64,000 nt of DNA, taken from Bacteroidales bacterium (lineage in GTDB: Bacteria; Bacteroidota; Bacteroidia; Bacteroidales; F082). A program made the translations under genes and the position numbers. The stretch covers positions 4,621-68,620 of the forward strand of contig JAZNSO010000007.1 in the NCBI GenBank assembly GCA_045591245.1, given 5' to 3'. The notes under the pieces are model-generated. The model was not told where the DNA came from. It saw only the letters and a program-made list of their open reading frames with translations, and did no database searches. Shown here piece by piece: positions 2,427 to 53,628 of the stretch. Every line of letters begins with the position of its first letter. Within the stretch, counting starts at the first letter, position 1.

Positions 2427-3596
2427 ATGAGCAATTTAAGTAAATTAAGAAAATTATTTTTTATCGGAATTATCGGTTTGTCTATGACATCATGTCAGGA
2501 GAAAGTGGTTCCACAGAAGAAAGCAGAAACAATTTATAAGACATTAACCGTAGAAAAAAGCGATCAGATATTGAGAAGCGGTTTCGCCGCCACCATCAAC
2601 GGCTGCCAGACCGTAGAAGTTCGTCCGCAGGTCAGTGGCATGATTACGGACATCCGCATCAACGAAGGCGACTTCGTGCGTAAAGACTCTACCCTTTTCG
2701 TCATCGACCAAACGCCATATAAAGCCGCTTACGAGATAGCGACAGCCAACGTGATGAGTGCCGAGGCAAACCTCTCGACAGCGCAGTTAGTTCTTGAAAG
2801 CAGCAAGGAACTTCTTGAACAAGATGTCATCTCCGAGTTTGAACTCATGACAGCACAGAACGACCTCGCCGAAGCCGAAGCTAAATTGGCGTTGGCAAAA
2901 GCCGAGATGAACAGTGCATACAACAACCTTTCTTATACTTACGTAAAATCACCTGTCAACGGTGTCGCTTCCATGATACCTTATCGTGTCGGCGCATTGG
3001 TAAACAGCAGCATAAGTCAGCCTTTAGTCACAGTATCCGACGACAGCAGAATCTTCGCTTATTTTTCCATGGCGGAAAATCAGATGTTAGATATGATTCA
3101 GGAATACGGCTCGTTGAAAGCCGCCATCAAGGACATGCCTGCTGTAGAATTGGTGATGAGCAACGGCAAGACATACAATCATAAAGGTAAGATCAACGCC
3201 GTGAGTGGAACCATCAGTGCGAGCACGGGAGCTGTTAGTTTCCGCGCCGTATTCCCAAATCCCGACCGTCTCTTACGCGACGGCGGCAGCGGAACAGTCA
3301 TCATACCGACCTCACACGAAGACTGCATCGTAATACCTCAGACCGCTACATTTGAACTACAGGAGAAGATATTCGTTTATAAAGTCGTTGACGGCAAGGC
3401 ACAATCGGCTGCCATCACCGTCATGCCTCGTAACAACGGCATCGATTATATAGTGACGAGCGGCTTGGAAGTCGGCGACGTCATCATCGCAGAAGGTGCA
3501 GGTTTGGTAAGAGAAGGAGCTACTATTAAGACAGCTGAAGAAGCCGACAGCCAACAGCCAACAGCTAACAGTCAAAATAACAACGGAGGTAATTGA
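2427..3596 (+). CDS. RND efflux periplasmic adaptor (membrane fusion protein), lipoprotein
   Basis: ORF 2421..3596 begins with TTG; the first ATG is at 2427. Lipobox LSMTSC. HlyD/AcrA-like layout (VEVRPQVSGMITDI..., coiled-coil hairpin, beta-barrel). It is followed by the RND pump. Confidence 0.9.
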   Translation: MSNLSKLRKLFFIGIIGLSMTSCQEKVVPQKKAETIYKTLTVEKSDQILRSGFAATINGCQTVEVRPQVSGMITDIRINEGDFVRKDSTLFVIDQTPYKAAYEIATANVMSAEANLSTAQLVLESSKELLEQDVISEFELMTAQNDLAEAEAKLALAKAEMNSAYNNLSYTYVKSPVNGVASMIPYRVGALVNSSISQPLVTVSDDSRIFAYFSMAENQMLDMIQEYGSLKAAIKDMPAVELVMSNGKTYNHKGKINAVSGTISASTGAVSFRAVFPNPDRLLRDGGSGTVIIPTSHEDCIVIPQTATFELQEKIFVYKVVDGKAQSAAITVMPRNNGIDYIVTSGLEVGDVIIAEGAGLVREGATIKTAEEADSQQPTANSQNNNGGN

Positions 3597-3598
3597 TT

Positions 3599-6500
3599 AT
3601 GAATATCAGAACATTCATCGACCGTCCGATTTTCGCCGGTGTCATCTCTGTGATAATAGTGTTGCTCGGTCTCATTTGTCTCGTCGGACTTCCTGTCGAA
3701 CAATATCCGGAAATCGCGCCTCCTACAGTAAGTGTTTCAGCGAATTACGCCGGTGCTAATGCCGAGACAGTACAGAACAGCGTCGTCGTGCCTTTGGAAG
3801 AAGCCATCAACGGCGTGGAAGACATGATGTATATGACATCATCAGCCAACAACAACGGTTCGGCTAACATACAGATTTATTTCCGTCAGGGAACAAACCC
3901 CGACATGGCTACTGTCAACGTTCAGAATCGTATAGCTTCAGCACAAGGATTGTTACCTGCAGAAGTAACACGTAGCGGCGTGACAGTACGTAAGCGACAG
4001 ACGAGTCGTATCAAGGCTCTAGCTGTTTATAGTCCTGACGACTCTTTCGACGAGAGATTCATAAGTAATTATTTAAAGATCAATATTGAGCCGAGATTAT
4101 CGCGTATCGCTGGCGTCGGCGAAGTCGATGTCAGAGGTGCCGACTACTCGCTTCGTATCTGGCTCGACCCGGCTAAGATGGCGAAATATTCTCTCATTCC
4201 TTCCGACATCTCGGCTGTATTGGCAGAACAAAACTTAGAAGCAGCCACCGGAACTCTCGGTGCCGACTCGGAAAACACATTCCGTTACACATTAAAATAT
4301 AGAGGTCGTTACGATAAAGAAGAAGACTACGCCAACATGGTGATTCGCGCCGATGCCGACGGTACTTTATTAAGACTTAAAGACATCGGAACTGTGGAAT
4401 TAGGTTCAAGAAGCTACGACTACATTGGAAAGGTAAACGGACATCCAGGAACCACATTGATGATCTCACAGACTTCAGGCTCCAACGCCAACGAAATCAT
4501 CGAAGCCATCGACAAGGAAGTGGAAGAAATCCGCAAGACCTTACCGAAAGGCATCGAAATCGTTGACTTGATGAGTACCAAAGACTTCTTAGACGCTTCT
4601 ATTGCTAACGTCATCGAGACACTTGTCTTAGCCGTCATCTTGGTTATCTTGATAGTCTACATCTTCTTACAGAGTTTCCGTTCCACCTTCATCCCTGCCA
4701 TCGCCATCGTCGTTTCACTCATAGGAACATTCGCATTCTTGATGGTAGCGGGATTCAGTCTCAACATGATCACGCTCTTCGCCTTAGTGCTCGTCATCGG
4801 TACTGTCGTTGATAATGCGATTGTTGTGGTAGAAGCGGTGCAAGCCAAATTCGACGCAGGATACACCTCGCCATATAAAGCCACCATCGACGCGATGCAA
4901 GGCATTTCCAACGCATTGATTGCAACGACATTCGTTTTCATGGCGGTGTTTATCCCAGTATGTTTCATGGGAGGAACTACAGGAACGTTCTATACGCAGT
5001 TCGGTCTTACGATGGCTGTTGCTGTAGGTATCTCACTCATCAACTCCATCACGTTAAGTCCGGCATTATGTGCATTATTGATGCAACCTTACGTCATAAA
5101 AGAAGACGGAAGCATGTCGTTCTCAACACGTTTTCATATAGTCTTCGACGCAGGTTTCAAGGGCGTAGTAAACAAATACAGAAAAGGTGTTCTCTTCATG
5201 TTCAAGAACAAATGGCTGTCGGTGATATTAGTCATCGTTGCTATCGGCGGACTTTTCTATATGTTAGAACACACCAAGACAGGTCTCGTCCCGAAAGAAG
5301 ACATGGGTTCTATAAACATTGACGTTCAGACACCTCCAGGAACTAACTTAGGAGAGACGGTGCGCGTCATGGAAATCATTGCATCACGCTTAGACGAGAT
5401 TCCTCAGATAGAATCATATTCCTATACAACAGGTTGGGGCATGATGAGCGGTGCAGGACCTTCGTGCGGAGGCTTCACCATTCGTCTCAAACCATGGGAA
5501 CAACGTACAGAAACAGAAGACAATATCGACTTCGTGATGGAAGACATTTATTCAAAGACATCCGACATCACCTCGGCTAAGATCATAGTCTTCACCCGCG
5601 GTATGATTCCTGGCTACGGAGCAAGTAGCGGTTTTGAGGTGCACATCCAAGACCAAAAAGGCGGTAAGTTAGAAGACCTTCAAAAAATCACCAACGACAT
5701 CATAGCAGCTCTGAACGAGAGACCAGAGATCAGCAGAGCATCAACATCTTTCGACACCAAATATCCTCAATATCTTTTGGAAGTCGATGCTGCGAGATGC
5801 AAGCGTAACGGCGTTTCTCCAGGCGAGGTTCTCAACGTGATGGCTGGCTACGTCGGCGGAAGTTACGCATCAAATATGAACAGATTCTCAAAGCTCTATC
5901 GTGTCATGATACAAGCCTCGGCAGAACATCGTTTAGACACCGAATCGCTCAACAATATGTTCGTAAGAAATAAAAACGGAGAGATGTCACCGATAGGTCA
6001 ATATGTTACATTGACACGTGTTTACGGACCACAGTCTATCTCACGTTTCAACCTTTTCTCATCAATACAAATCAACGGACAAGCTGCCAACGGATACTCA
6101 TCCGGAGAGGCGATCCAAGCGGTCAGAGATGTCACCGACGAATTATTGCCGGCAGGTTACGGATACGAATTCGGAGGAATGTCGAGAGAAGAAGCATCAT
6201 CGAGCAGCTCGACAGCGATGATATTTGTAATCTGTATAGTATTCATCTACTTAATACTTTGTGCTTTATACGAAAGTATCTTCATTCCTATCGTCGTCAT
6301 ATTATCAGTACCATTCGGATTGGCAGGCAGTTTCTTGTTCGCCAATATGTTCGGATTGGAAAACAACATTTATTTACAGATCGGACTTCTGATGCTGATA
6401 GGATTGTTAGCAAAGACAGCCATCTTGATTACCGAATACGCATCAGCGAGAAGAACAGAAGGAATGTCAATACCGATGGCAGCGATGTCGGCAGCAAAGG

Positions 6501-6730
6501 AAAGATTAAGAGCCATCTTAATGACATCATTGACAATGATTTTCGGTATGTTACCGATGATGTTCGCAACAGGTGTAGGTGCTAACGGCAATATCTCCAT
6601 CGGCGTGGGAACAGTAGGCGGAATGCTCATCGGAACGATAGCGTTATTATTCGTAGTGCCAGTTTTATTTATTATCTTTAGAAATATTGAAGAAAAAGTA
6701 ATGCCTAAAAGAAATAAGGAAATAGAATAA
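3599..6730 (+). CDS. RND (HAE1/AcrB-like) efflux permease
   Basis: About 1040 aa starting MNIRTFIDRPIFAGVISV..., with 12 TM segments and two large periplasmic loops. ATG 3599 lies 3 nt after the adaptor stop. Confidence 0.95.
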   Translation: MNIRTFIDRPIFAGVISVIIVLLGLICLVGLPVEQYPEIAPPTVSVSANYAGANAETVQNSVVVPLEEAINGVEDMMYMTSSANNNGSANIQIYFRQGTNPDMATVNVQNRIASAQGLLPAEVTRSGVTVRKRQTSRIKALAVYSPDDSFDERFISNYLKINIEPRLSRIAGVGEVDVRGADYSLRIWLDPAKMAKYSLIPSDISAVLAEQNLEAATGTLGADSENTFRYTLKYRGRYDKEEDYANMVIRADADGTLLRLKDIGTVELGSRSYDYIGKVNGHPGTTLMISQTSGSNANEIIEAIDKEVEEIRKTLPKGIEIVDLMSTKDFLDASIANVIETLVLAVILVILIVYIFLQSFRSTFIPAIAIVVSLIGTFAFLMVAGFSLNMITLFALVLVIGTVVDNAIVVVEAVQAKFDAGYTSPYKATIDAMQGISNALIATTFVFMAVFIPVCFMGGTTGTFYTQFGLTMAVAVGISLINSITLSPALCALLMQPYVIKEDGSMSFSTRFHIVFDAGFKGVVNKYRKGVLFMFKNKWLSVILVIVAIGGLFYMLEHTKTGLVPKEDMGSINIDVQTPPGTNLGETVRVMEIIASRLDEIPQIESYSYTTGWGMMSGAGPSCGGFTIRLKPWEQRTETEDNIDFVMEDIYSKTSDITSAKIIVFTRGMIPGYGASSGFEVHIQDQKGGKLEDLQKITNDIIAALNERPEISRASTSFDTKYPQYLLEVDAARCKRNGVSPGEVLNVMAGYVGGSYASNMNRFSKLYRVMIQASAEHRLDTESLNNMFVRNKNGEMSPIGQYVTLTRVYGPQSISRFNLFSSIQINGQAANGYSSGEAIQAVRDVTDELLPAGYGYEFGGMSREEASSSSSTAMIFVICIVFIYLILCALYESIFIPIVVILSVPFGLAGSFLFANMFGLENNIYLQIGLLMLIGLLAKTAILITEYASARRTEGMSIPMAAMSAAKERLRAILMTSLTMIFGMLPMMFATGVGANGNISIGVGTVGGMLIGTIALLFVVPVLFIIFRNIEEKVMPKRNKEIE

Positions 6731-8076
6731 TGAAAAAGATATTAATACCTATATTATTATTGTTGACAATTGTCTCGATGAACAGTTGTGCTTTGTATAA
6801 AGAATACGAGCGTCCTGATATTGCTTTCGTAGATAGTCTCTACAACAGAATTCCGACAGCAGACGACTATGAGTCAATAGCTTCTCTCACTTGGAAAGAA
6901 CTGTTTGCAGACACACTTCTTCATAGTCTGATAGAATTAGGGTTAGAAAACAACACCGATTTAGAGATAGCACGCTTGAAAGTAGAACAAGCAGAAGCCA
7001 CTTTAAAGACTTCCAAATTAGCATTCTATCCGAATGTCTCATTCTCTGCGCAAGTCGGAGCCAACCAGAACGGATCCAACTACAGCCTCGCCCCCACCGC
7101 TTCATGGGAAGTCGATGCTTTCGGCAGATTACACAACACCAAAGAAGGAGCTAAGGCAGCACTCGCAGCGACGGAGGCTTATCAGCAGGCAGTACAGACT
7201 CAGCTCATCGCGACGATTGCAGATGCCTATTACACACTGCTCATGCTCGACGAACAATTAGACATAAGCAAAAGGACATTAAACACTTGGGAAGAAAATA
7301 TCAGGACATTATCGGCTTTGAAGAGAGCCGGCAAGACCAACGAAGCTGCTGTACTTCAGGCAAAAGCCAATAAAGTCAATGTGGAAGCTTCTATATTAAG
7401 TTTAGAGAAGCAAATCATAGAACAAGAAAATTCATTATCAGCGTTGTTAGGACTTGTGCCACAAGAATTTGAGCGTAACGCTTTATCGGAACAAGTATTT
7501 CCAGATACATTATTGATGGGACTTCCTTTATCGAGTCTCGTCAACCGTCCTGACGTAAGACAAGCTGAGTATAAGTTAGTTGAAGCCTATTATGCCACCA
7601 ATGTAGCGCGTTCCTACTTCTACCCTTCTATCACTTTAAGCGGAAGTGCTGGATGGTCGGGAGTCAGCGGCAATCCAGGCGACTTCATTTTCAATGCAGT
7701 AGGCTCTTTGATGCAGCCAATCTTCAATCAAGGCAAAAACAAAGCGAGGTTAAAGATAAGCGAGTCGCAACGACAAGAAGCCTTGTTGAATTTCAAGCAG
7801 ACTTTGTTAGACGCAGGCACTGAGGCAAACAACGCCTTGATTTCATGGCAGACAGCACGTAAGAGATTAGACAGCGACAAGTTACAGATTGTGTATCTGA
7901 AAGGAGCTGTCATGAATACGCAGCTTCTCATGAAGAACGGACAAGCCGATTATTTGGAAGTTTTGACAGCTCAGAAGAATCTGTTACAGGCAGAACTGAC
8001 TGAAACAAACGACAAATATCTTGAAATACAGAGCGTTATTTCATTATATCATGCGCTTGGAGGAGGAATGGAGTAA
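6730..8076 (+). CDS. Efflux outer-membrane factor lipoprotein (NodT/TolC family)
   Basis: TAATG overlap with the permease stop. Lipobox VSMNSC. Duplicated TolC-like helical repeats. Confidence 0.9.
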   Translation: MKKILIPILLLLTIVSMNSCALYKEYERPDIAFVDSLYNRIPTADDYESIASLTWKELFADTLLHSLIELGLENNTDLEIARLKVEQAEATLKTSKLAFYPNVSFSAQVGANQNGSNYSLAPTASWEVDAFGRLHNTKEGAKAALAATEAYQQAVQTQLIATIADAYYTLLMLDEQLDISKRTLNTWEENIRTLSALKRAGKTNEAAVLQAKANKVNVEASILSLEKQIIEQENSLSALLGLVPQEFERNALSEQVFPDTLLMGLPLSSLVNRPDVRQAEYKLVEAYYATNVARSYFYPSITLSGSAGWSGVSGNPGDFIFNAVGSLMQPIFNQGKNKARLKISESQRQEALLNFKQTLLDAGTEANNALISWQTARKRLDSDKLQIVYLKGAVMNTQLLMKNGQADYLEVLTAQKNLLQAELTETNDKYLEIQSVISLYHALGGGME

Positions 8077-10580: not shown

Positions 10581-10621
10581 AAATCTCCAGATTTTCGATT
10601 GAATTTCTGGAGATTTTTTAT
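10581..10621. terminator. Bidirectional rho-independent terminator between convergent genes
   Basis: AAATCTCCAGA-N14-TCTGGAGATTT followed by TTTTA, with an A-rich run on the other side. Confidence 0.6.
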
Positions 10622-10651: not shown

Positions 10652-13393
10652 TCAGCTAAGCAATTTCTTAATCGCTCTCATTGCTTCACCGACAAACAAT
10701 ACAGGGAATGTTCCTACAATGATGTAGAGCCATTCAATCATTTTCAAAGGAGCGACATTGAACATTTCGCCGCCAAAAGTTACAATAAGATACTGTCCGC
10801 CGCATATTACGAGCAAAGCTAACCCGAAGCCAGCCAAAACGTCTTTATTGAACAAGCCTTTCAGTGCGGAGCCTTCGCTATGGAATGCTTTGGCATTGAA
10901 TAAATTCCAGAATTGTAAGAATACGAATATAGAAAATATGAACGTTTGTTCTACTGGCGATATTCCTTGTGACGACTTAAAGTTGAAATAATTTTTGAAA
11001 TAGTCAGCAAATGAGAAATCTGCTAATGAAGTCACATCAGCGTGTTTGAAATATTGGACGAGACCAAACATAAGAAGAACGAAGAAAATACCGACTCCGA
11101 AAATAGACCACATCATTGGTTTTGTAATGATATTTGCTTCTCTGCTACGAGGTTTTTCTTTCATCACCATTTCTGAAGGTGGCAGAGATGCCAAAGCGAG
11201 AGCAGCGAAAGTATCCATGATAAGGTTAACCCAAAGCATCTGAGTTACAGTAAGAACCATTTCTGTTCCTAGCAACGCACCGAGCATAACGATAAGGCAA
11301 GCAGCTACATTAATTGTCATTTGGAATACCACGAAACGTTGGATATTGATGTAAAGAGATCTACCCCACATCACGGCGCGAGCTATACTATTGAATGAGT
11401 TGTCGAGAATTGTTATGTCGGAGGCCTCTTTAGCCACTGTGGTTCCGTCGCCCATTGAGAGGCCGACTTGAGCAGCTTTCAATGCAGGAGCGTCATTTGT
11501 ACCGTCACCGGTAACAGCGACGACTTCTCCTTCACTTTGCAACAATCTGACCAGACGTTCTTTATCCATAGGACGAGCGCGCGACATAATCTTAATATTA
11601 TGAACAACAGAAATAGCCTCTTCATCAGAGAGAGCTTCCCAATCTTTTCCTGTTATGTGATTAACTTCTTTAGAATCAGTGCCTAGCCATAAACCAAGCT
11701 GACGACCGATTTCCATTGCTGTACCAGGAGTATCACCTGTAACGATCTTAACGTCAATACCTGCTGACATACAATTCTTTACTGCTTCTGCAACATCGCT
11801 GCGGATTGGGTCAGCTATAGCGACTACGCCCAGTAAAATAAAGTTTTCTGCCACGAGGTCATCTGTATTAGGATCGAATGATTGTTCGTTAGGATCGCCT
11901 ACTTTATAAGCGAAAGCGAGAGTACGCATTGCCTTACCTTGATATTCAAGAAGTTGTCTTTCAACATCCAAACGATAAGGAGTAATATCCACATTGCCTT
12001 CTGGCATCGCAATTTTATTACAATGTCTCAATAAAATCTCAGGAGCTCCTTTTACATAAAATATAGGTTTTCCCATAGCAGGCGACTCTACGATAGAAGC
12101 CATGAATTTATATTTCGTCGAAAACGGAACTTGTTGATACATCTTCACACCTTCTCTAAGTTGCATATAATCAACGCCTTGTTTATTAAGCCACAATAAC
12201 AAGGCTCCTTCAGTAGGATTTCCTATTGCCTTGATTTTTTTCTCATCACTGAAATCGAGGAATGCTGTTGTATTAAGTGCGAGACTTTCTTTTATAAGGT
12301 TACTAATCTCATTATCAGAAAGTTGTTTTTCAGGAAGAGCAGGGAAACTCATATCATTAACGCTCATTTGGTTCTGAGTAAGAGTTCCTGTTTTATCTGT
12401 ACAAATCACAGTAGCAGCTCCCATTGTCTCACAGGCGTGCATTTTTCTGACGAGGTTATTTGCGGTAAGCATTCGTTTCATACTCAATGCCAAACTCAGA
12501 GTTACGCTCATCGGAAGACCTTCTGGAACAGAAACCACTATTATTGTGACTGCCATCATCAATGTATTAAGAAGATAATGAGCGAAATTCAGCCATTCGA
12601 ATGTTTCGCCTGTTGTGAAGTACATCACAAGACGCATTACTAAAATCACAGAAGCAATGATATAACTTGCGACAGTGATAATCTTTCCGAGATGATCTAA
12701 TTGATTATCAAGAGGAGTTTTTATATTATTATCGATTTGAGAACCTTGATAAACCTTACCCCATTCTGTTGCGTCGCCTACCTTATCGACTATCATAACG
12801 CCATGACCGTCGATGACCTTACTTCCGCGGAGAACATAGTTTGATGGATAAGTTGCGTCTTTCTTAAACTCTTTAGGATCGATTGTTTTCGTCGCCATAG
12901 GTTCGCCAGTCAAGTCTGATTCATTGACTTGCAACGAGAATGCATCAATAAGTTCGCCGTCAGCAGGCACTTCATCACCTGTTTCTATGATAACCACGTC
13001 ACCGACAACAATTTCCTTACGACCAATGACTGTAATATTTCCATTACGAACGACTTTCACTTCCTCATCGTCGCTGACCTTATTAAGCACTTCGAATTTT
13101 TTATTTGCGCTGACCTCAAAGGCAAAACCTATGCATGTTGCGAGCATTATAGCGACGAAAATTCCTATTGGTTCAAATAACACCGCAATTCCTTCATCAG
13201 TTGTAAAGAATTGATACAGAGACACTCCTATTGACAAAGCCAATGCTATCAATAAGATTCTAATGATAGGATCTGTAAATTTTTCCAGAAACTGATGCCA
13301 TAGAGATTCTTTCTCTGGCGGTGTCAAAACATTGGAGCCGTGTTTCTTACGACTTTCTTCAACTTGATCGTTAGTTAAACCTTTGTTCATCAT
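10652..13393 (-). CDS. Calcium-translocating P-type ATPase (PMCA/P2 type)
   Basis: 913 aa. ICTDKTGTLTQN phosphorylation site, TGDGTNDAPALK hinge, LTGEP actuator motif, VPEGLP in M4. Confidence 0.95.
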   Translation of the reverse strand: MMNKGLTNDQVEESRKKHGSNVLTPPEKESLWHQFLEKFTDPIIRILLIALALSIGVSLYQFFTTDEGIAVLFEPIGIFVAIMLATCIGFAFEVSANKKFEVLNKVSDDEEVKVVRNGNITVIGRKEIVVGDVVIIETGDEVPADGELIDAFSLQVNESDLTGEPMATKTIDPKEFKKDATYPSNYVLRGSKVIDGHGVMIVDKVGDATEWGKVYQGSQIDNNIKTPLDNQLDHLGKIITVASYIIASVILVMRLVMYFTTGETFEWLNFAHYLLNTLMMAVTIIVVSVPEGLPMSVTLSLALSMKRMLTANNLVRKMHACETMGAATVICTDKTGTLTQNQMSVNDMSFPALPEKQLSDNEISNLIKESLALNTTAFLDFSDEKKIKAIGNPTEGALLLWLNKQGVDYMQLREGVKMYQQVPFSTKYKFMASIVESPAMGKPIFYVKGAPEILLRHCNKIAMPEGNVDITPYRLDVERQLLEYQGKAMRTLAFAYKVGDPNEQSFDPNTDDLVAENFILLGVVAIADPIRSDVAEAVKNCMSAGIDVKIVTGDTPGTAMEIGRQLGLWLGTDSKEVNHITGKDWEALSDEEAISVVHNIKIMSRARPMDKERLVRLLQSEGEVVAVTGDGTNDAPALKAAQVGLSMGDGTTVAKEASDITILDNSFNSIARAVMWGRSLYINIQRFVVFQMTINVAACLIVMLGALLGTEMVLTVTQMLWVNLIMDTFAALALASLPPSEMVMKEKPRSREANIITKPMMWSIFGVGIFFVLLMFGLVQYFKHADVTSLADFSFADYFKNYFNFKSSQGISPVEQTFIFSIFVFLQFWNLFNAKAFHSEGSALKGLFNKDVLAGFGLALLVICGGQYLIVTFGGEMFNVAPLKMIEWLYIIVGTFPVLFVGEAMRAIKKLLS

Positions 13394-13412
13394 AAAAAAA
13401 AATATTTATATT

Positions 13413-13898
13413 TTATCTATTTTCTTTTTCTAACAATTTTCTAAATTTTTGTTTATTGTCATCGTCTCTGAAATAAAACATATCACTTATATTATCCATG
13501 CTTATCTCCTTTGTAATATAAGTAACATACATATTGCCAATAAGTTTTGTTTCTGACTGACAAACGGTTTTTATTCCACTAATATACTTGTATGTAGACA
13601 CCAGCGATGTATCGATATAAATTTCTGAATAAGCATCACCTTCAGATGTCATTCGTTCCGCGACGCGAGTAACAGCCGAATTCACCATTTTAGCCAATTC
13701 ACACTCAGCACATATATTAGCCATCTTTCTTGACTCATTGATAGCTTTTGAATGATTACCGAACAAGACCTCCTGACATCCATAAGCAGTATATCTGAAG
13801 AAAGCATTATCAGATTTATATTCTGAACAATCATTATCTTGTGCTGCAATCACATCCACCATAAACAAAAACAGAATGCAAATGTACAATTTTTTCAT
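13413..13898 (-). CDS. Secreted Cys-rich protein of unknown function (LPP20-like pattern)
   Basis: 161 aa with signal MKKLYICILFLFMVDVIAAQ. ATGA overlap with the upstream gene. Only 19 nt before the ATPase ATG. Confidence 0.7.
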   Translation of the reverse strand: MKKLYICILFLFMVDVIAAQDNDCSEYKSDNAFFRYTAYGCQEVLFGNHSKAINESRKMANICAECELAKMVNSAVTRVAERMTSEGDAYSEIYIDTSLVSTYKYISGIKTVCQSETKLIGNMYVTYITKEISMDNISDMFYFRDDDNKQKFRKLLEKENR

Positions 13899-14812
13899 CG
13901 TTCAATTATCTTCCAATTAGCATATAAACAATTATTTTTCAACGAAAGATTTACAAGTGAACACGACAAATTAGTTTTCATCACCATACGTGCAATATTT
14001 TGAGACTTATCATTATAAGAAGCATCTTTTTCATTGGTAATTTGTCGCATCGAGTTCTCTATCACAATATTTTCTGATTCAAACATAGACAAAGCCTGGA
14101 AGAAACTATCGACAAAAGCATTCCACAATCCGAATTCACATTTTGAGAAGACCATTTCATCTGATGTATTTCCATAATCATTATATGAATTCATTGTTTT
14201 CTTCAAGTCGGAATAATACTCTTCTATATATGATCTTTTAAAATATTTGTTATTATCAATCGTTGAATTCCAAAGCATTTCCTTAATTAAATCTGTAGTT
14301 TGGGTTAACATTATTTGCTTTTCTCCGTAATCAGCTGCCTTATTGTAACTATCATAATGGTACATAAATGAGCCTTTTGCTGTTACAGAAACAGCATTCT
14401 CATCTGCATCAATAATATTAAGGAGAACTATTGTTTCATTATATTTGGTTCGGAATATCTTTTCCACCTTATATGATAAGGTATCCGCTACAGTTTCAAA
14501 CTCAGCTATCCAATGTGATCTTTGGTTATTAAAATCATCATTATGATGTATTGCATTAAAATAATAATATTCATAAACTGATGCTAATTCAGCATCTTTT
14601 TCTATAGCATAAAAAGCCAATGCTCTATGTACAGCTTGATAATATGCTATTATAGTATCGCTACTTGGATCGGACACGCCCAAACATCCGCCTTCAAAAA
14701 ACCAACTTGGCAATTCCTCTCCATAAGTAACGGGGGAATCCTCTTGTCCCCCCGTATTACTTGCATTTAATGTTCCTGCATATAGCAGTAAAATAATAAA
14801 TAAGTTTCTCAA
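13895..14812 (-). CDS. Secreted protein of unknown function
   Basis: 305 aa with a signal-like N-terminus RNLFIILLLYAGTLNAS. The start codon at 14812 is TTG and there is no in-frame ATG nearby. Confidence 0.6.
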   Translation of the reverse strand: MRNLFIILLLYAGTLNASNTGGQEDSPVTYGEELPSWFFEGGCLGVSDPSSDTIIAYYQAVHRALAFYAIEKDAELASVYEYYYFNAIHHNDDFNNQRSHWIAEFETVADTLSYKVEKIFRTKYNETIVLLNIIDADENAVSVTAKGSFMYHYDSYNKAADYGEKQIMLTQTTDLIKEMLWNSTIDNNKYFKRSYIEEYYSDLKKTMNSYNDYGNTSDEMVFSKCEFGLWNAFVDSFFQALSMFESENIVIENSMRQITNEKDASYNDKSQNIARMVMKTNLSCSLVNLSLKNNCLYANWKIIER

Positions 14813-14823
14813 CGTTCTATAAA

Positions 14824-15369
14824 TTATTGTAATTTACTCATTTCTTCATCAAGAACTTTTTTGAATTTTTCGTACTCAAAATCTGTTCTGAGTTTTTCAT
14901 CATTTGAAATTTGACTTGCGATGCCATCTAATATTGACTTACCTGTAAGTTCCACACAAGCATAGCAAATTGTTGTACCAGGTTGGCTACCTGGCACTGT
15001 AGCTTCGCAAATCACAGGAGTTCCTTTAAGTTTTTGATTTACAACTGTGCGAGCAATTTCTTGTACACGTTGATTGAATTCACTTTCTGCATCTGCAATG
15101 TATTCACTTGTGTAATTATCAATAACACTTTTTACTGTAGCATCAACCATTGCTGCCAATTGTACACGAGCATTATTAGCAGCTAAAGAACGTGCTTGCT
15201 GAATTTGTCTGTCGCTACCAGCAACATGTTGTCCTAAATAACGAAAGACATCTGATGTAGCTTTGCATTCTGGACATGGTAAATTTGATGCGACTTGTTT
15301 GCCAGAACCACAGGAAACCATTACTAATGCCATTACGACAATTCCTAAAAATAAAGAAATCTTTTTCAT
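14824..15369 (-). CDS. Lipoprotein of unknown function (LPP20-like pattern)
   Basis: 181 aa with lipobox ALVMVSC-GSGKQ. An Ala-rich helix (ARSLAANNARVQLAAMVDATVKSV) is followed by a Cys-containing beta segment. Confidence 0.75.
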   Translation of the reverse strand: MKKISLFLGIVVMALVMVSCGSGKQVASNLPCPECKATSDVFRYLGQHVAGSDRQIQQARSLAANNARVQLAAMVDATVKSVIDNYTSEYIADAESEFNQRVQEIARTVVNQKLKGTPVICEATVPGSQPGTTICYACVELTGKSILDGIASQISNDEKLRTDFEYEKFKKVLDEEMSKLQ

Positions 15370-15500
15370 TTTGATTAATTTTTTAATTACGCCTACTCTT
15401 TGCTTTTCGGCTTCCGCATATTATTTGAATTTAATTTATTTTGTTACTATCTAAACGTATCTGATTCTTATTTTTACTACACTTATAATTGAGATAAGAT

Positions 15501-16436
15501 TTACATACTGATATTTACCTTATGTATTATTTTCTTCTTTCCTAAACTATAACGTATTTCCACATAATTGTCATCCTGCTCATAGCAATCGAAGGTATTA
15601 AAAGTCACAACAACCTGACATCCACTATGTCTTCTATTAAAGTCTCTTGCACATTCACTTCTGAGTTGAGGGAGCGACTTTGTTTTCATTACCTTTTCTC
15701 CATGCATCAACTGTATCACAATGGTACCTCGGTCGTTAGAATTACTGTTCTCCAATACTTCAACATAAATGCCCTTTATCGCATTTTCATAGAGTACAAT
15801 GATATTTTCCAATTTGGAAACTCTTACAGAGTTATCTTGATGCTCCACCTTCATTGCTTTCATCTGAGAAATATTCTCCAGCATAACATCAATATCATCT
15901 ATTTTTTCAAGTGAATTTCTATAACCATCTATTTTATCATTGACAGCCTTTTCTTGAGCATTATATATATCTATAAGTTCTTGCAAATCATATTGTGTGA
16001 ATGGATATAAAATATAATAATCGTAACAGCTTTCTTTTGTTTTTTTATTGACATAACGTTCCCAATAAATATTAGCTTTTGACAAATCAATACCCTGCAA
16101 TGCTGGCATTTTTGCAATTTGTGCCTTGGTAACCCTTTCTGTCTGTTGCCTGTATTCTGCTTCACTTCCAACAACAATTTCCTCATCTTTTATTACGACT
16201 TCAGAACTAATGATAGTTGCAATAGATGATGCAATTTGATTTTTCAGACTTATCAAAACCTCTGTCTTGGCATCTTCTATTGTCTCAGCCTTATACGCCA
16301 CAAACAAATACGGGTCACTACTTGATGCCCAATTGGGTTTTTCATTTGCACTTTTTTCAACTAATTTAAAATCTTTCTGAGCCAATGATACAAATGGCAA
16401 AAAAAACAAGATTAATACTAATAATTTTTTTCTCAT
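15501..16436 (-). CDS. Secreted protein of unknown function
   Basis: ORF 15501..16463, which I start at ATG 16436 (MRKKLLVLILFFLPFVSLAQ). That start is 4 nt after the upstream stop. Confidence 0.7.
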   Translation of the reverse strand: MRKKLLVLILFFLPFVSLAQKDFKLVEKSANEKPNWASSSDPYLFVAYKAETIEDAKTEVLISLKNQIASSIATIISSEVVIKDEEIVVGSEAEYRQQTERVTKAQIAKMPALQGIDLSKANIYWERYVNKKTKESCYDYYILYPFTQYDLQELIDIYNAQEKAVNDKIDGYRNSLEKIDDIDVMLENISQMKAMKVEHQDNSVRVSKLENIIVLYENAIKGIYVEVLENSNSNDRGTIVIQLMHGEKVMKTKSLPQLRSECARDFNRRHSGCQVVVTFNTFDCYEQDDNYVEIRYSLGKKKIIHKVNISM

Positions 16437-16440
16437 ATCT

Positions 16441-17121
16441 TTACTCGTCAATCCAAGACACATCAGGATTATTATTTTTAATATTATTATTTGATTGCGA
16501 TTGTTGTTCCGCTGAAATCTTACTTAAAATATCTATAGAATTCTTATAGCAATCTAATTCTACGTCTATTTGAGGAATCGCGTTGAGTTCATTAAGTGCT
16601 TCGTCATACATACCCATTTCCAAATATGTCGCGATAGTCTCCATCACCTTATCGCATTCATTCTCATAATATTCAACGATTCTATTTTTTGCATTGACAA
16701 TCATCTTCTTGAGTTTAGGGTCGCGTGACTTAATTGACTTAATGGCTTCTGTGACAGCTTTATTCTCATTATCAGCGACACCTTTCTTTGTCATTATCTC
16801 CTGAGACAACAAAAGTTTTCTACTATTATCGACAATGAAACAAGATATTTCCACTTCTGCGACATAATTAATTGGTACTGTTGTCGTTGGCTCTATCGAA
16901 AGGACAGTGATAGAAGGCACCAACAAAAACTTATTCGAATTGTCGGTCGAGCCTATTCCATTAAGCGATACAGCCTGATTCAATCTGTTATACAACATCA
17001 TAGCTGCATCTTCGGTGATATTATCTGTAGAAACAGGCAACACTCTGATTGACTGAGCTTTTGAAACTAATGACATTGATATCAAAAACAGTGTCATCAT
17101 CAAGATATTAATTCTTTTCAT
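16441..17121 (-). CDS. Secreted protein of unknown function
   Basis: 226 aa with signal MKRINILMMTLFLISMSLVSKAQ. The C-terminal region is helical and TPR-like (YLEMGMYDEALNELNAIPQ). Confidence 0.7.
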   Translation of the reverse strand: MKRINILMMTLFLISMSLVSKAQSIRVLPVSTDNITEDAAMMLYNRLNQAVSLNGIGSTDNSNKFLLVPSITVLSIEPTTTVPINYVAEVEISCFIVDNSRKLLLSQEIMTKKGVADNENKAVTEAIKSIKSRDPKLKKMIVNAKNRIVEYYENECDKVMETIATYLEMGMYDEALNELNAIPQIDVELDCYKNSIDILSKISAEQQSQSNNNIKNNNPDVSWIDE

Positions 17122-17122
17122 A

Positions 17123-18106
17123 TTATTTCTCTCCTATTATAATCCAGACTTCACCGAGTCCGCGTTCATAAATTTTACTTTCAATCAAAAAAGGTTCTTT
17201 TTTCAGATAACTTCTAAGTCCATTGGCGAAACCTCTTGCGTCTAAAGCCGACAATCTTCCGTTACGTTCTTTGTACAAAGGAATTCTAACTTGTTCAAAA
17301 ACAAGATAAGTGCTCGTTGCGTTAGTTCTTGTCGGGGCATGATTTACTGTATTATCTTCCATCCAATATGAAATAATGTCTGTAAGTTCCAGATAATCAT
17401 CTTCAAAGTCAAATTCTGTTTCTAAATCGACATCAGAATTATCCCACACTCTGAATTTCAGGACCACTTCACGACCGTTTTTTGCCATATCTTCAAAATG
17501 AGCCATCAGTTGTGAACAAAACGAATCCATGTAATTCAGAACTGCTTCTTCAAGCAACAGATTTACAGGAGCAGTCGTTGAAGGATTCCCCACTCCGGAA
17601 TTAGCAGCGATGACTTTATTTGTATAAGCATCTAAACCTCTCATATTGTATGAGATATAACGTTGAGGACCTTTTTGCATCACTGTATAGTCTAGATCAA
17701 TTATAATATCTGCCTTTGCAGTTCTTTTCACTTTATCTAACATGGACTCAGTGATATACGCGCCAGAAGACGAACTTTCCAGGAGACTCATTTCAACAGA
17801 TTCCTGCTGAATAGATTTAAGCGTTTGTTCAAGGTCTTTCAACGGGAAACCTCTTTCTGCCATAATTTGAGACAATTCCGATATGACAAGACGTAAATCT
17901 TCAATATTATCTTGCTTGAAAAGGTTAGCGACATCGGAAACCACCTGTTTGTTTCCGTTCTCATCCACCCATTCTGTAGTATAACCATGACGCGAGCAAT
18001 AGGCATCAGCTGGCATTATCATAATAGTCGGTTTCTTAGCTTGAGCCATCAAACTAACTGATACAAAAACAAATATCAAAGATAAAAACAATTTTCTCAT
18101 AAGCAT
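17123..18106 (-). CDS. Secreted protein of unknown function (possibly DUF6175-like, from memory only)
   Basis: 327 aa with signal ...FVSVSLMAQA followed by KKPTIMIMPADAY. First gene of the block. Confidence 0.7.
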   Translation of the reverse strand: MLMRKLFLSLIFVFVSVSLMAQAKKPTIMIMPADAYCSRHGYTTEWVDENGNKQVVSDVANLFKQDNIEDLRLVISELSQIMAERGFPLKDLEQTLKSIQQESVEMSLLESSSSGAYITESMLDKVKRTAKADIIIDLDYTVMQKGPQRYISYNMRGLDAYTNKVIAANSGVGNPSTTAPVNLLLEEAVLNYMDSFCSQLMAHFEDMAKNGREVVLKFRVWDNSDVDLETEFDFEDDYLELTDIISYWMEDNTVNHAPTRTNATSTYLVFEQVRIPLYKERNGRLSALDARGFANGLRSYLKKEPFLIESKIYERGLGEVWIIIGEK

Positions 18107-18127
18107 TTTACTTGATTAATTCGTATG

Positions 18128-18135
18128 CAAATTTA
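18128..18135 (-). promoter_or_regulatory. Candidate -7 box (minus strand TAAATTTG) for the six-gene block
   Basis: Plus-strand caaattta. It lies 22 nt upstream of ATG 18106 and just downstream of the 18166-18195 terminator. Confidence 0.3.
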
Positions 18136-18165: not shown

Positions 18166-18195
18166 TACAAAAAAAAGTCATCGGATGATGACTTT
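18166..18195 (-). terminator. Rho-independent terminator of the DUF4251-like gene
   Basis: Minus strand: AAAGTCATC-atcc-GATGACTTT followed by a T run. Confidence 0.6.
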
Positions 18196-18224: not shown

Positions 18225-18875
18225 TTATGGTAGTGGATAGATTGTCGATGCATTTTCTGGCGAGACAATATCGCCAGTAAATGTGACTTGCCCGCCATCA
18301 TTGGAGAAGAAAATTATTCTTCCAGTTCCATTTGCCTGAACATAAACTTTGAAGTTAACAGGAATGACTCCAGTCCAGGTTCTAAACGAGCCCGTTATGA
18401 CAAAAGGTCCGTCTGAATCAGACATATCCACGCTATACGACAGCAATGTAGCAGGAGTGTTAGGAGTATCCCACGACTGCCAGTTCCATCCTGGCCAGCC
18501 AGGAGCGTTATATCCAGGACCAACGCCAGGAACTCCTGGACCATACCACGCCAAAGGTGCTGCAACAGAAGATGATACTGGATTATCAAATTCTATGCTT
18601 ATCGCAATCTTATCGCCTATTATGGCAAAATAATTTTGGAATGAGGAAACCGGCGACTCCTGTCCGAAAGGACCAATGAAAGTATTGGCTTCCAATACCA
18701 ATGTGGTGTCTTTGACCAACTTGACCATTTCTGCACGTGACTGTGCCAATTCCATCGCCTGACGTGCTCTACGTTCTGCGCGACGTTCCGTACGTTCTGT
18801 CTTGCCCGCACTCTGTGCAAAGAGCGAACCGCTAAAAACAAGAAGTAATGTTAATGTTAATAATCTAGATCTCAT
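18225..18875 (-). CDS. DUF4251-like secreted protein with a Gly/Pro/Trp-rich insertion
   Basis: 216 aa. A signal peptide is followed by the basic helix TERTERRAERRARQAMELAQSRAEMVKLV and then LVLEANTF..., which is the DUF4251 layout as I remember it. Confidence 0.65.
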   Translation of the reverse strand: MRSRLLTLTLLLVFSGSLFAQSAGKTERTERRAERRARQAMELAQSRAEMVKLVKDTTLVLEANTFIGPFGQESPVSSFQNYFAIIGDKIAISIEFDNPVSSSVAAPLAWYGPGVPGVGPGYNAPGWPGWNWQSWDTPNTPATLLSYSVDMSDSDGPFVITGSFRTWTGVIPVNFKVYVQANGTGRIIFFSNDGGQVTFTGDIVSPENASTIYPLP

Positions 18876-53429: not shown

Positions 53430-53615
53430 TTCCCGAAAGTCTTGATTGTCTGACAACTGGCAGGTCTTCTGACTTACTCCTTACGTCTGACGTCTTCCCA
53501 TCTTTTTAGGAAAAGAAAGTGACTTAATGTCTGACGCTGTTAGAGTTCACAGCAGCGGGAACTGTTCAGGATTCGCACCTGATTCCCTATTGAGTCCTTA
53601 CGGACACCATTTATC
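53430..53615 (-). promoter_or_regulatory. Cobalamin (B12) riboswitch
   Basis: Minus-strand RNA reads ...AAUAGGGAAUCAGGUGCGAAUCCUGAACAGUUCCCGCUGCUGUGA...GUCACU...GGGAAGAC...AGUCAGAAGACCUGCC. That is the conserved core plus the B12 box, in the 5' leader of the TonB-dependent receptor. Confidence 0.85.
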
Positions 53616-53620
53616 GTTTG

Positions 53621-53628
53621 CAAAGATA
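53621..53628 (-). promoter_or_regulatory. Candidate -7 box (minus strand TATCTTTG) of the riboswitch transcript
   Basis: Plus-strand caaagata, immediately upstream of the riboswitch 5' end. Confidence 0.35.

Follow-up and report, generated by a model that had tools for sequence, protein, structure and literature searches.

PelC and CsgG form rings, as stated in the titles of their PDB entries. An SHS2-like fold is common to FlgP, Lpp20 and FlgT, of which FlgP and FlgT form rings that are associated with the outer membrane (PMC12222027). A gene cluster of the GNA1162/CsgG type is also widespread, and its role is unknown (bioRxiv 10.1101/2021.05.19.444899). Here, we analyzed a stretch of 64,000 nucleotides (nt) from a Bacteroidales bacterium (assembly GCA_045591245.1, contig JAZNSO010000007.1, positions 4,621 to 68,620), which is referred to as the window. 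Six genes for secreted proteins lie back to back on its minus strand, followed by a gene for a PMCA-type Ca2+ P-type ATPase. The six open reading frames (ORFs) were labelled g1 to g6 in the order of their transcription, with g1 being first. The block is best explained as a lineage-specific copy, trimmed and then decorated, of an uncharacterised envelope module that occurs across the Bacteroidota. The core of this module is g1, g2 and g3, usually joined by a small protein of the LPP20-like kind (here the g4 lipoprotein); g5 and g6 were added recently and vary. According to our overall reading, to which we assign a probability of roughly 0.5, the conserved module would form a periplasmic scaffold tethered to the outer membrane, and the Ca2+ pump is probably co-transcribed with the local copy and is not part of the module. 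The comparative statements are far more secure than the mechanistic ones. The features of the locus are as follows (aa, amino acids).

17123 to 18106, minus strand: g1, 327 aa, secreted DUF6175 protein with a fold like that of PelC and GNA1162 and possibly CsgG, the most conserved member of the module.
16441 to 17121, minus strand: g2, 226 aa, secreted, fold unassigned.
15501 to 16436, minus strand: g3, 311 aa, secreted; N-terminal alpha/beta domain (weakly LPP20-like), helical hairpin and C-terminal beta-sandwich.
14824 to 15369, minus strand: g4, 181 aa, LPP20-like lipoprotein of the outer membrane, predicted to face the periplasm.
13895 to 14812, minus strand: g5, 305 aa, secreted, TTG start, accessory gene restricted to one clade.
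13413 to 13898, minus strand: g6, 161 aa, non-lipidated paralogue of g4.
10652 to 13393, minus strand: PMCA-type Ca2+ P-type ATPase, 913 aa, probably read through from g6.
18166 to 18195, minus strand: upstream intrinsic terminator, a hairpin followed by U8, which ends a DUF4251-like gene and isolates the block.
18128 to 18135, minus strand: candidate Bacteroidota -7 box TAAATTTG, 22 nt ahead of the first ATG of g1.
15390 to 15420, minus strand: DUF805b-like RNA element, a near-threshold match to RF02914 that ends about 22 nt ahead of the g4 start codon.
10581 to 10621, minus strand: downstream intrinsic terminator after the ATPase gene, a hairpin followed by a U-rich tail.

The module was delineated by comparing the loci of g1 relatives. 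A scan of one genome per species yielded 213 relatives, and 80 loci with flanks of up to 10 kb per side were retrieved and compared by tblastn and by clustering of our own ORF calls. Twenty of these loci are close (g1 identity at least 62%). The 60 distant loci keep g1-g2-g3 and stem from Alistipes-like, Parabacteroides, Paludibacter, Prolixibacteraceae, Lentimicrobiaceae and termite Prevotellaceae lineages. The gene for g2 lies directly after g1 in all 20 close loci and in 51 of 53 distant ones, and g3 is present in all 20 and in 50 of 53, respectively. From gut Bacteroidales to Prolixibacteraceae and Paludibacter, g1, g2 and g3 remain in this order, at g1 identities of only 49-58%, and the gap between g1 and g2 measures exactly 1 nt throughout the close clade. 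A small protein of the g4 type or of the short g3 type (LPP20-like) is encoded no more than five genes from g1 in 30 of 37 well-flanked distant loci. The content after g3 varies within the close clade: g3 leads straight to the ATPase gene in four genomes, g4 alone intervenes in six, and g4-g5-g6 are found in nine. The g5 gene was seen in just 10 genomes of the loci compared, namely the window and 9 of the 20 close relatives, and g6 occurs solely together with g5. The earlier note on this DNA had treated the six proteins as one set. The comparison divides them into the core g1-g3, a frequent g4 and the two add-ons; conserved synteny across the Bacteroidota was found for g1-g2-g3, and both the full six-gene set and the linkage to the ATPase gene are restricted.

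Divergence and gene turnover within the clade would also fit a different explanation, in which there is no machine at all and rapidly evolving periplasmic or vesicle-cargo proteins, with unrelated or redundant roles, are joined by nothing but a shared promoter. In the close clade, g2 and g3 diverge fast (43-74% identity, g3 43-59%), compared with 81-90% for g1 and 90-95% for the ATPase. The genes g4, g5, g6 and a further gene of about 185 aa are gained or lost among close relatives, and g5 is nearly an orphan family, with 38 representatives at an expectation value (E) of 1e-3 or below among 1.84 billion proteins. The G+C content of g2-g6 (window 13400-17000) is 32-34%, lower than the 38-43% of the ATPase gene and the upstream genes. 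Against such a loose collection stand the preserved order of g1-g2-g3 as far as Prolixibacteraceae and Paludibacter and the invariant 1-nt junction of g1 and g2 in the close clade. We consider this explanation quite unlikely.

In the distant loci, two further genes recur ahead of the core. A gene for a secreted protein of about 169 aa was found upstream of it in 46 of 56 loci, and this gene is itself preceded by one for a protein of about 550 aa in 28 of 48. The consensus of the larger protein ends in GLRxEF, as in outer-membrane barrels; this barrel assignment is a sequence pattern only, and neither Pfam nor PDB gave a match. Profile searches with both families against Pfam, NCBIfam and PDB sequences returned nothing above noise, and neither gene was found anywhere in the window. 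Other neighbours of the module were seen more sporadically. The protein of about 185 aa mentioned above is secreted and has no family match. The window lacks its gene, which sits between g3 and g4 or behind g3 in the carriers (L002, L006, L008, L010, L011, L016, L019, L020 and L021-L025) and is present as a tandem pair in some of them. In several distant lineages a secreted protein of about 875 aa adjoins the module (L021-L025, L033, L036, L060, L065, L071 and L078; for example L060:14306-16933; about 477 aa in L033 and L036). It had no Pfam or NCBIfam match and may be a further component.

The most conserved protein of the block, g1, is a member of the Pfam family DUF6175 (PF19672), with 338.4 bits (curated cut-off 23 bits), E 4.2e-101 and an alignment over model positions 1-293 of 293. 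Searches retrieved 5861 homologue clusters with g1 and 4741 with its Paludibacter homologue, and all of those listed carry PF19672. An exact search for g1 among public assemblies returned no record. The homologues are named only as DUF or hypothetical proteins, no paper mentioning DUF6175 was found, and the search from the Paludibacter homologue gave no cultured, named organism among the carriers. A model of g1 was obtained with AlphaFold2 (AF2; predicted local distance difference test score, pLDDT, 81; predicted template modelling score, pTM, 0.72) and was compared with the PDB using Foldseek. CsgG (4uv2) was matched with E 1.7e-4 over about 225 columns, with a template modelling (TM) score of 0.28 when normalised to the query and 0.38 when normalised to the target, and a root-mean-square deviation (rmsd) of 12 Å. 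GNA1162/DUF799 (4hrv) followed with E 1e-3 and a target-normalised TM of 0.56-0.58, and PelC (5t11) reached a target-normalised TM of up to 0.62 with an rmsd of 4.6 Å over 186 columns. The PelBC transporter, a DUF330 lipoprotein and FlgT (3w1e) were also matched. The similarity to PelC and GNA1162 spans the whole small domain of these proteins. On the sequence level, g1 did not match CsgG in Pfam or NCBIfam, nor DUF799 in Pfam, at E<=1, and it has no lipobox, since its signal ends SLMAQ-AKKP and contains no Cys. Because both the lipobox and the sequence match are missing, g1 was not filed as a member of the PelC or GNA1162 families; what the model reveals is a resemblance in fold to PelC and GNA1162 and, less clearly, to CsgG.

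The families of g3, g4 and g6 point to a second group of known proteins. Of all weak Pfam matches, LPP20 (PF02169; gathering score 25.9 bits) was the most frequent both in the g3 family, where 12 of 43 members gave it (best E 1e-4), and in the g4/g6 family, where 18 of 47 did (best E 2e-4). The only PDB sequence match of the g4/g6 profile was Lpp20 of Helicobacter pylori (5ok8), with E 0.13 over 114 positions. The window proteins g3, g4 and g6 themselves did not match PF02169 at E<=1 and did not reach the gathering score. These data suggest that the two families are remotely related to LPP20, not members of it. A profile-profile comparison had first linked g3 to g4/g6 with 91% probability, and this value dropped to 37% (64 columns) when the signal peptides were trimmed. 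The other profile-profile matches between the families were signal-peptide artefacts. Thus the link to LPP20 rests on the independent Pfam and PDB matches and is called weak. Foldseek with the whole AF2 model of g3 (pLDDT 83) returned only major histocompatibility complex and immunoglobulin structures at a TM of about 0.2; these matches are non-specific, because g3 has several domains, and were not used. Long g3 forms in Alistipes-like genomes carry additional CarboxypepD_reg and Laminin_G_3 domains. No Pfam, NCBIfam or PDB sequence match was obtained for g2 or for g5. The earlier note had described all six proteins as being of unknown function. Family placement has since advanced, with g1 assigned to DUF6175 and leads from fold or remote sequence similarity for four of the six proteins, and none of these gives a known function.

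All six proteins carry an N-terminus typical for export, with one to three K or R followed by a hydrophobic stretch of 12 residues (mean Kyte-Doolittle value over these residues 2.2-3.2); the N-terminus of the ATPase scored -0.66. This agrees with the Sec or lipoprotein signals noted before, including the lipobox of g4, VMVSC-GSGKQ. The other five signals resemble the signal-peptidase-I type and end in AQ or NA. Of the three LPP20-like proteins only g4 bears a lipobox, and the signals of g3 and g6 are non-lipoprotein. The signal of g6 ends AAQ-DNDC. BLAST clustering groups g6 with g4; the two are 25% identical in the alignment and have an invariant Cys in common. The surface-export signal of Bacteroidota lipoproteins is K-(D/E)2 or SDDDD (PMC5080379). 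No acidic residues are present in g4 at positions +2 to +6, and g4-type lipoproteins carry basic residues after the lipidated Cys. Since this export signal is missing, g4 is predicted to be located on the periplasmic side of the outer membrane.

The arrangement of the genes was then considered as a transcription unit. The six minus-strand ORFs were found at the positions reported earlier, and the tight spacing was likewise borne out: 1 nt between g1 and g2, 4 nt between g2 and g3, 11 nt between g4 and g5, a 4-nt ATGA overlap of g5 and g6 and 19 nt from g6 to the ATPase gene, with 131 nt between g3 and g4 as the single wider gap. Two start codons deserve mention. The start of g1 is probably the second ATG (18100), two codons downstream of the listed one, because the homologues are 325 aa long. 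The full-length TTG form of g5 is backed by nine homologues with the same N-terminal signal. Both flanking terminators were confirmed by folding. The upstream hairpin gave -15.1 kcal/mol (z -4.2), which was equalled by 0 of 200 shuffled sequences, and the downstream hairpin (about 10581-10621) gave -19.9 kcal/mol (z -7.8). A terminator scan revealed no terminator-like sites between the genes of the block. For the -7 box proposed in the earlier note, the outcome was mixed. Its position recurs: of 21 related genomes, 19 have a TAnnTTTG box 16-80 nt ahead of the block's first gene. In the window as a whole the motif is found at chance frequency (71 observed, 69 expected), and the box alone is therefore weak evidence and carries no statistical signal. 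In the window, the 200 nt ahead of the ATPase ATG contain no such box. A promoter-like box thus follows a strong terminator, the block has no internal terminator, and the ATPase gene comes after a gap of only 19 nt without a box of its own. Transcription as a single unit, from about 18135 to about 10581, is plausible on these grounds.

A seventh secreted protein, of 216 aa, is encoded just upstream of the block, ahead of the terminator (window 18225-18875, minus strand). It matched DUF4251 weakly (23.6 bits, cut-off 27), contains a stretch rich in Gly, Pro and Trp, and keeps its position throughout the 19 closest relatives, 4 of which have the module gene of about 169 aa between the 216-aa gene and g1.

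The ATPase was confirmed as PMCA-type, in line with the earlier note (TIGR01517, 645 bits, curated equivalog cut-off 507 bits; E1-E2_ATPase, Cation_ATPase_N, Cation_ATPase_C and Hydrolase domains present). In the window genome, the sequence suggests that it is probably co-transcribed with the block. The earlier note went further and tied the protein set to Ca2+ export as a functional unit. According to this idea, the six secreted proteins and the pump are one system; the pump might, for example, supply periplasmic Ca2+ for the folding or assembly of the secreted proteins, or the proteins might buffer or sense the exported Ca2+. The short gap without a terminator or -7 box ahead of the ATPase gene fits this idea. 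So does the presence of the ATPase gene downstream of the block in all 20 close loci, regardless of the number of small genes in between, with a gap of 9-56 nt in 15 of 21 genomes. However, the ATPase gene was found at none of the 60 distant core loci within the flanks of up to 10 kb per side, including 0 of 36 with at least 9 kb of downstream sequence. The flanks of the close clade are also collinear (peptidase E, a DUF4251-like secreted protein, a MATE transporter and a GH97 enzyme), so that conserved adjacency of the ATPase gene is expected from common descent at such depth and carries little functional signal. Moreover, in the six close relatives with g4 and without g5-g6, the ATPase gene lies 196-479 nt downstream of the last small gene and is preceded by a TAnnTTTG box 62-140 nt ahead of its ATG. 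No g5 or g6 remnants were found in the relatives with long gaps before the ATPase gene. Finally, Pfam and NCBIfam searches revealed no Ca-binding domain among the six proteins. Taken together, the ATPase is probably not functionally tied to the module, and the linkage probably reflects the gene order of one family-level clade. One functional system of pump and secreted proteins is improbable in our view.

In the 131-nt gap between g3 and g4, the earlier note had found no hairpin or promoter box. The terminator scan gave no site there, but the gap is not empty and contains a conserved DUF805b-like RNA element. At 15390-15420 (minus strand) it scored 34.7 bits against Rfam RF02914, 0.9 below the gathering threshold of 35.6 bits (E 4.6e-6 over the 64-kb window), and its near-consensus sequence matches 31 of 35 model positions. 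All 15 close relatives with g4 share the core of the element, GCGGAAGCCGAAAAGC-AAAGAGTAGGC, with hardly any change; including the window, these are 16 genomes. The element lies within variable AT-rich spacers, ends 21-27 nt ahead of the g4 ATG and is absent wherever g4 is absent. A divergent copy was detected in two Paludibacter loci, 19 nt ahead of a small barrel-like gene with which the module begins there; in this copy the stem UGC/GCA is replaced by GAC/GUC. Analysis with RNAalifold gave a different stem of 3 bp without covariation, and the structural support is thin. With our own sequence model, no further copies were detected in 1.4 Mb of loci. An internal promoter ahead of the element was considered and is unlikely, as a TAnnTTTG box was seen there in 2 of 16 genomes. 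Probably, the element is an intercistronic or leader RNA that would tune g4 and the downstream genes apart from g1-g3. It resembles DUF805b in its position within a 5' leader, about 22 nt before a start codon, and differs from it in the sub-threshold score, the low stem covariation and the gene that follows. From the name and description of the family, a DUF805b RNA would presumably be expected upstream of a DUF805 gene. The gene behind the window element encodes the LPP20-like lipoprotein g4, not a DUF805 membrane protein. The literature on DUF805b contained nothing relevant. The orphan motif would gain a new gene association.

From these comparisons, a model for the module can be proposed. 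All six proteins would be exported by Sec, and g4 would be lipidated, sit on the periplasmic face of the outer membrane and serve the assembly as its lipid anchor. The DUF6175 protein g1 would act as a CsgG/PelC-like ring element and g3, g4 and g6 as LPP20/FlgP-like units, and together the proteins would make up an oligomeric scaffold or funnel below the outer membrane. The proposal draws on the oligomeric rings or discs that proteins of both fold groups form beneath the outer membrane elsewhere. In the relatives, it would serve the barrel protein. This partner, which may be encoded upstream in other lineages, would have been lost in the clade of the window, where the scaffold would work without a barrel or with one encoded elsewhere.

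The same observations can be read in terms of transport: the module would be the accessory, periplasmic portion of a system that exports a polymer or a protein across the outer membrane. In such an exporter, g1 would form a PelC/CsgG-like funnel below the barrel and g3, whose long forms carry lectin-like domains, would handle the cargo. In favor of this, the best structural matches of g1 include PelC, the PelBC transporter and CsgG, the core in distant lineages usually follows the protein ending in GLRxEF, and CarboxypepD_reg and Laminin_G_3 are found on the long g3 forms. On the other hand, the barrel gene is wholly missing from the window and its clade, where g1-g3 are still kept, and its assignment as a barrel is the sequence pattern described above. 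In the loci compared, no glycosyltransferase, polymerase or substrate gene was consistently adjacent. We therefore regard an exporter as unlikely.

Several points also weigh against the scaffold that we favor. Oligomerisation and protein-protein contacts are inferred only by analogy, and the presumed barrel partner is missing from the window. The fold match of g1 is partial, with E between 1e-4 and 1e-2 and the query-normalised TM of 0.28, and g1 lacks a lipobox and any sequence match to CsgG, PelC or DUF799. No fold can be assigned to g2 and g5. The assignment to LPP20 is sub-threshold for every window protein, and the profile link of g3 and g4 fell from 91% to 37% without the signal peptides. 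The much faster evolution of g2 and g3 than of g1 (43-74% against 81-90%) is unusual for a rigid machine. In addition, the unbroken adjacency of the ATPase gene in 20 genomes, despite gain and loss of the intervening genes, could indicate a functional tie within the clade.

Two other features of the window were recorded. A cobalamin riboswitch aptamer is located at 53442-53626 (minus strand; 98.6 bits, gathering threshold 31.5). A TolC-like outer-membrane factor ORF of 448 aa (6730-8076, plus strand) lies beside ORFs of 1043 and 389 aa (2427-6730, plus strand), an arrangement that, judged from the ORF lists, resembles a resistance-nodulation-division (RND) efflux operon.

What had looked like a curiosity of six genes is now a defined module found across the phylum, which has thousands of DUF6175 homologues, fold leads, a predicted location and a list of partners. 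The analysis also removes a tempting link to calcium export, which is unsupported beyond one clade. Many conserved envelope genes of the Bacteroidota have no known role, and the envelopes of this phylum differ from the proteobacterial textbook model. If the module is a ring-forming machine, it would be a new case in which the CsgG/PelC and LPP20 folds are reused for an outer-membrane structure. A bolder proposal, which we offer as doubtful, is that DUF6175, g2, g3 and the LPP20-like lipoproteins, together with the barrel-like and 169-aa proteins, constitute an unrecognised outer-membrane apparatus found across the Bacteroidota. It would consist of a ring or disc under a dedicated barrel, serve export or envelope anchoring, and use the same folds as curli and Pel export and the flagellar discs of Proteobacteria. 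In the clade of the window, it would be controlled by a DUF805b-type RNA leader and expressed together with a Ca2+ pump.

In line with the earlier note, no described system of such composition turned up in the literature, and nothing relevant was found on LPP20 together with CsgG. The locus can still be compared with several known systems. The PelC-PelB pair, which exports an exopolysaccharide through the outer membrane (PDB 5t11, 9h80), is similar in that the g1 model superposes on PelC (target-normalised TM up to 0.62, rmsd 4.6 Å) and in that g1 lies two genes after the barrel-like protein in many relatives, which recalls a ring under a porin. In contrast to PelC, g1 is twice as large, has an extra C-terminal domain and lacks both a lipobox and a sequence match; pel-type synthesis genes are not found nearby and the barrel candidate is missing from the window. 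The curli channel CsgG and the widespread non-curli csgG/GNA1162 (DUF799) lipoprotein cluster provide the best Foldseek matches of g1 (4uv2 and 4hrv), and the cluster of Proteobacteria likewise comprises conserved small envelope proteins of unknown role. The window differs in having no equivalents of CsgE, CsgF and CsgA, in the non-lipoprotein nature of g1, and in its phylum and partner genes. Lpp20 of H. pylori (HP1456, 5ok8) is the only PDB sequence match of g4/g6 and, like g4, an outer-membrane lipoprotein; the E of this match is only 0.13. Lpp20 is encoded in a small operon with other small secreted proteins, which recalls the setting of g4, and the module shows no homology to the other members of that operon. 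The flagellar rings and basal disc of FlgT and FlgP show the same pairing, a FlgT-like fold (FlgT, 3w1e, is among the matches of g1) with LPP20/SHS2-type proteins that polymerise below the outer membrane (PMC12222027), whereas the module locus has no flagellar genes and its similarity to LPP20 is sub-threshold. In summary, the module is best seen as a variant of outer-membrane-associated, ring-forming lipoprotein systems.

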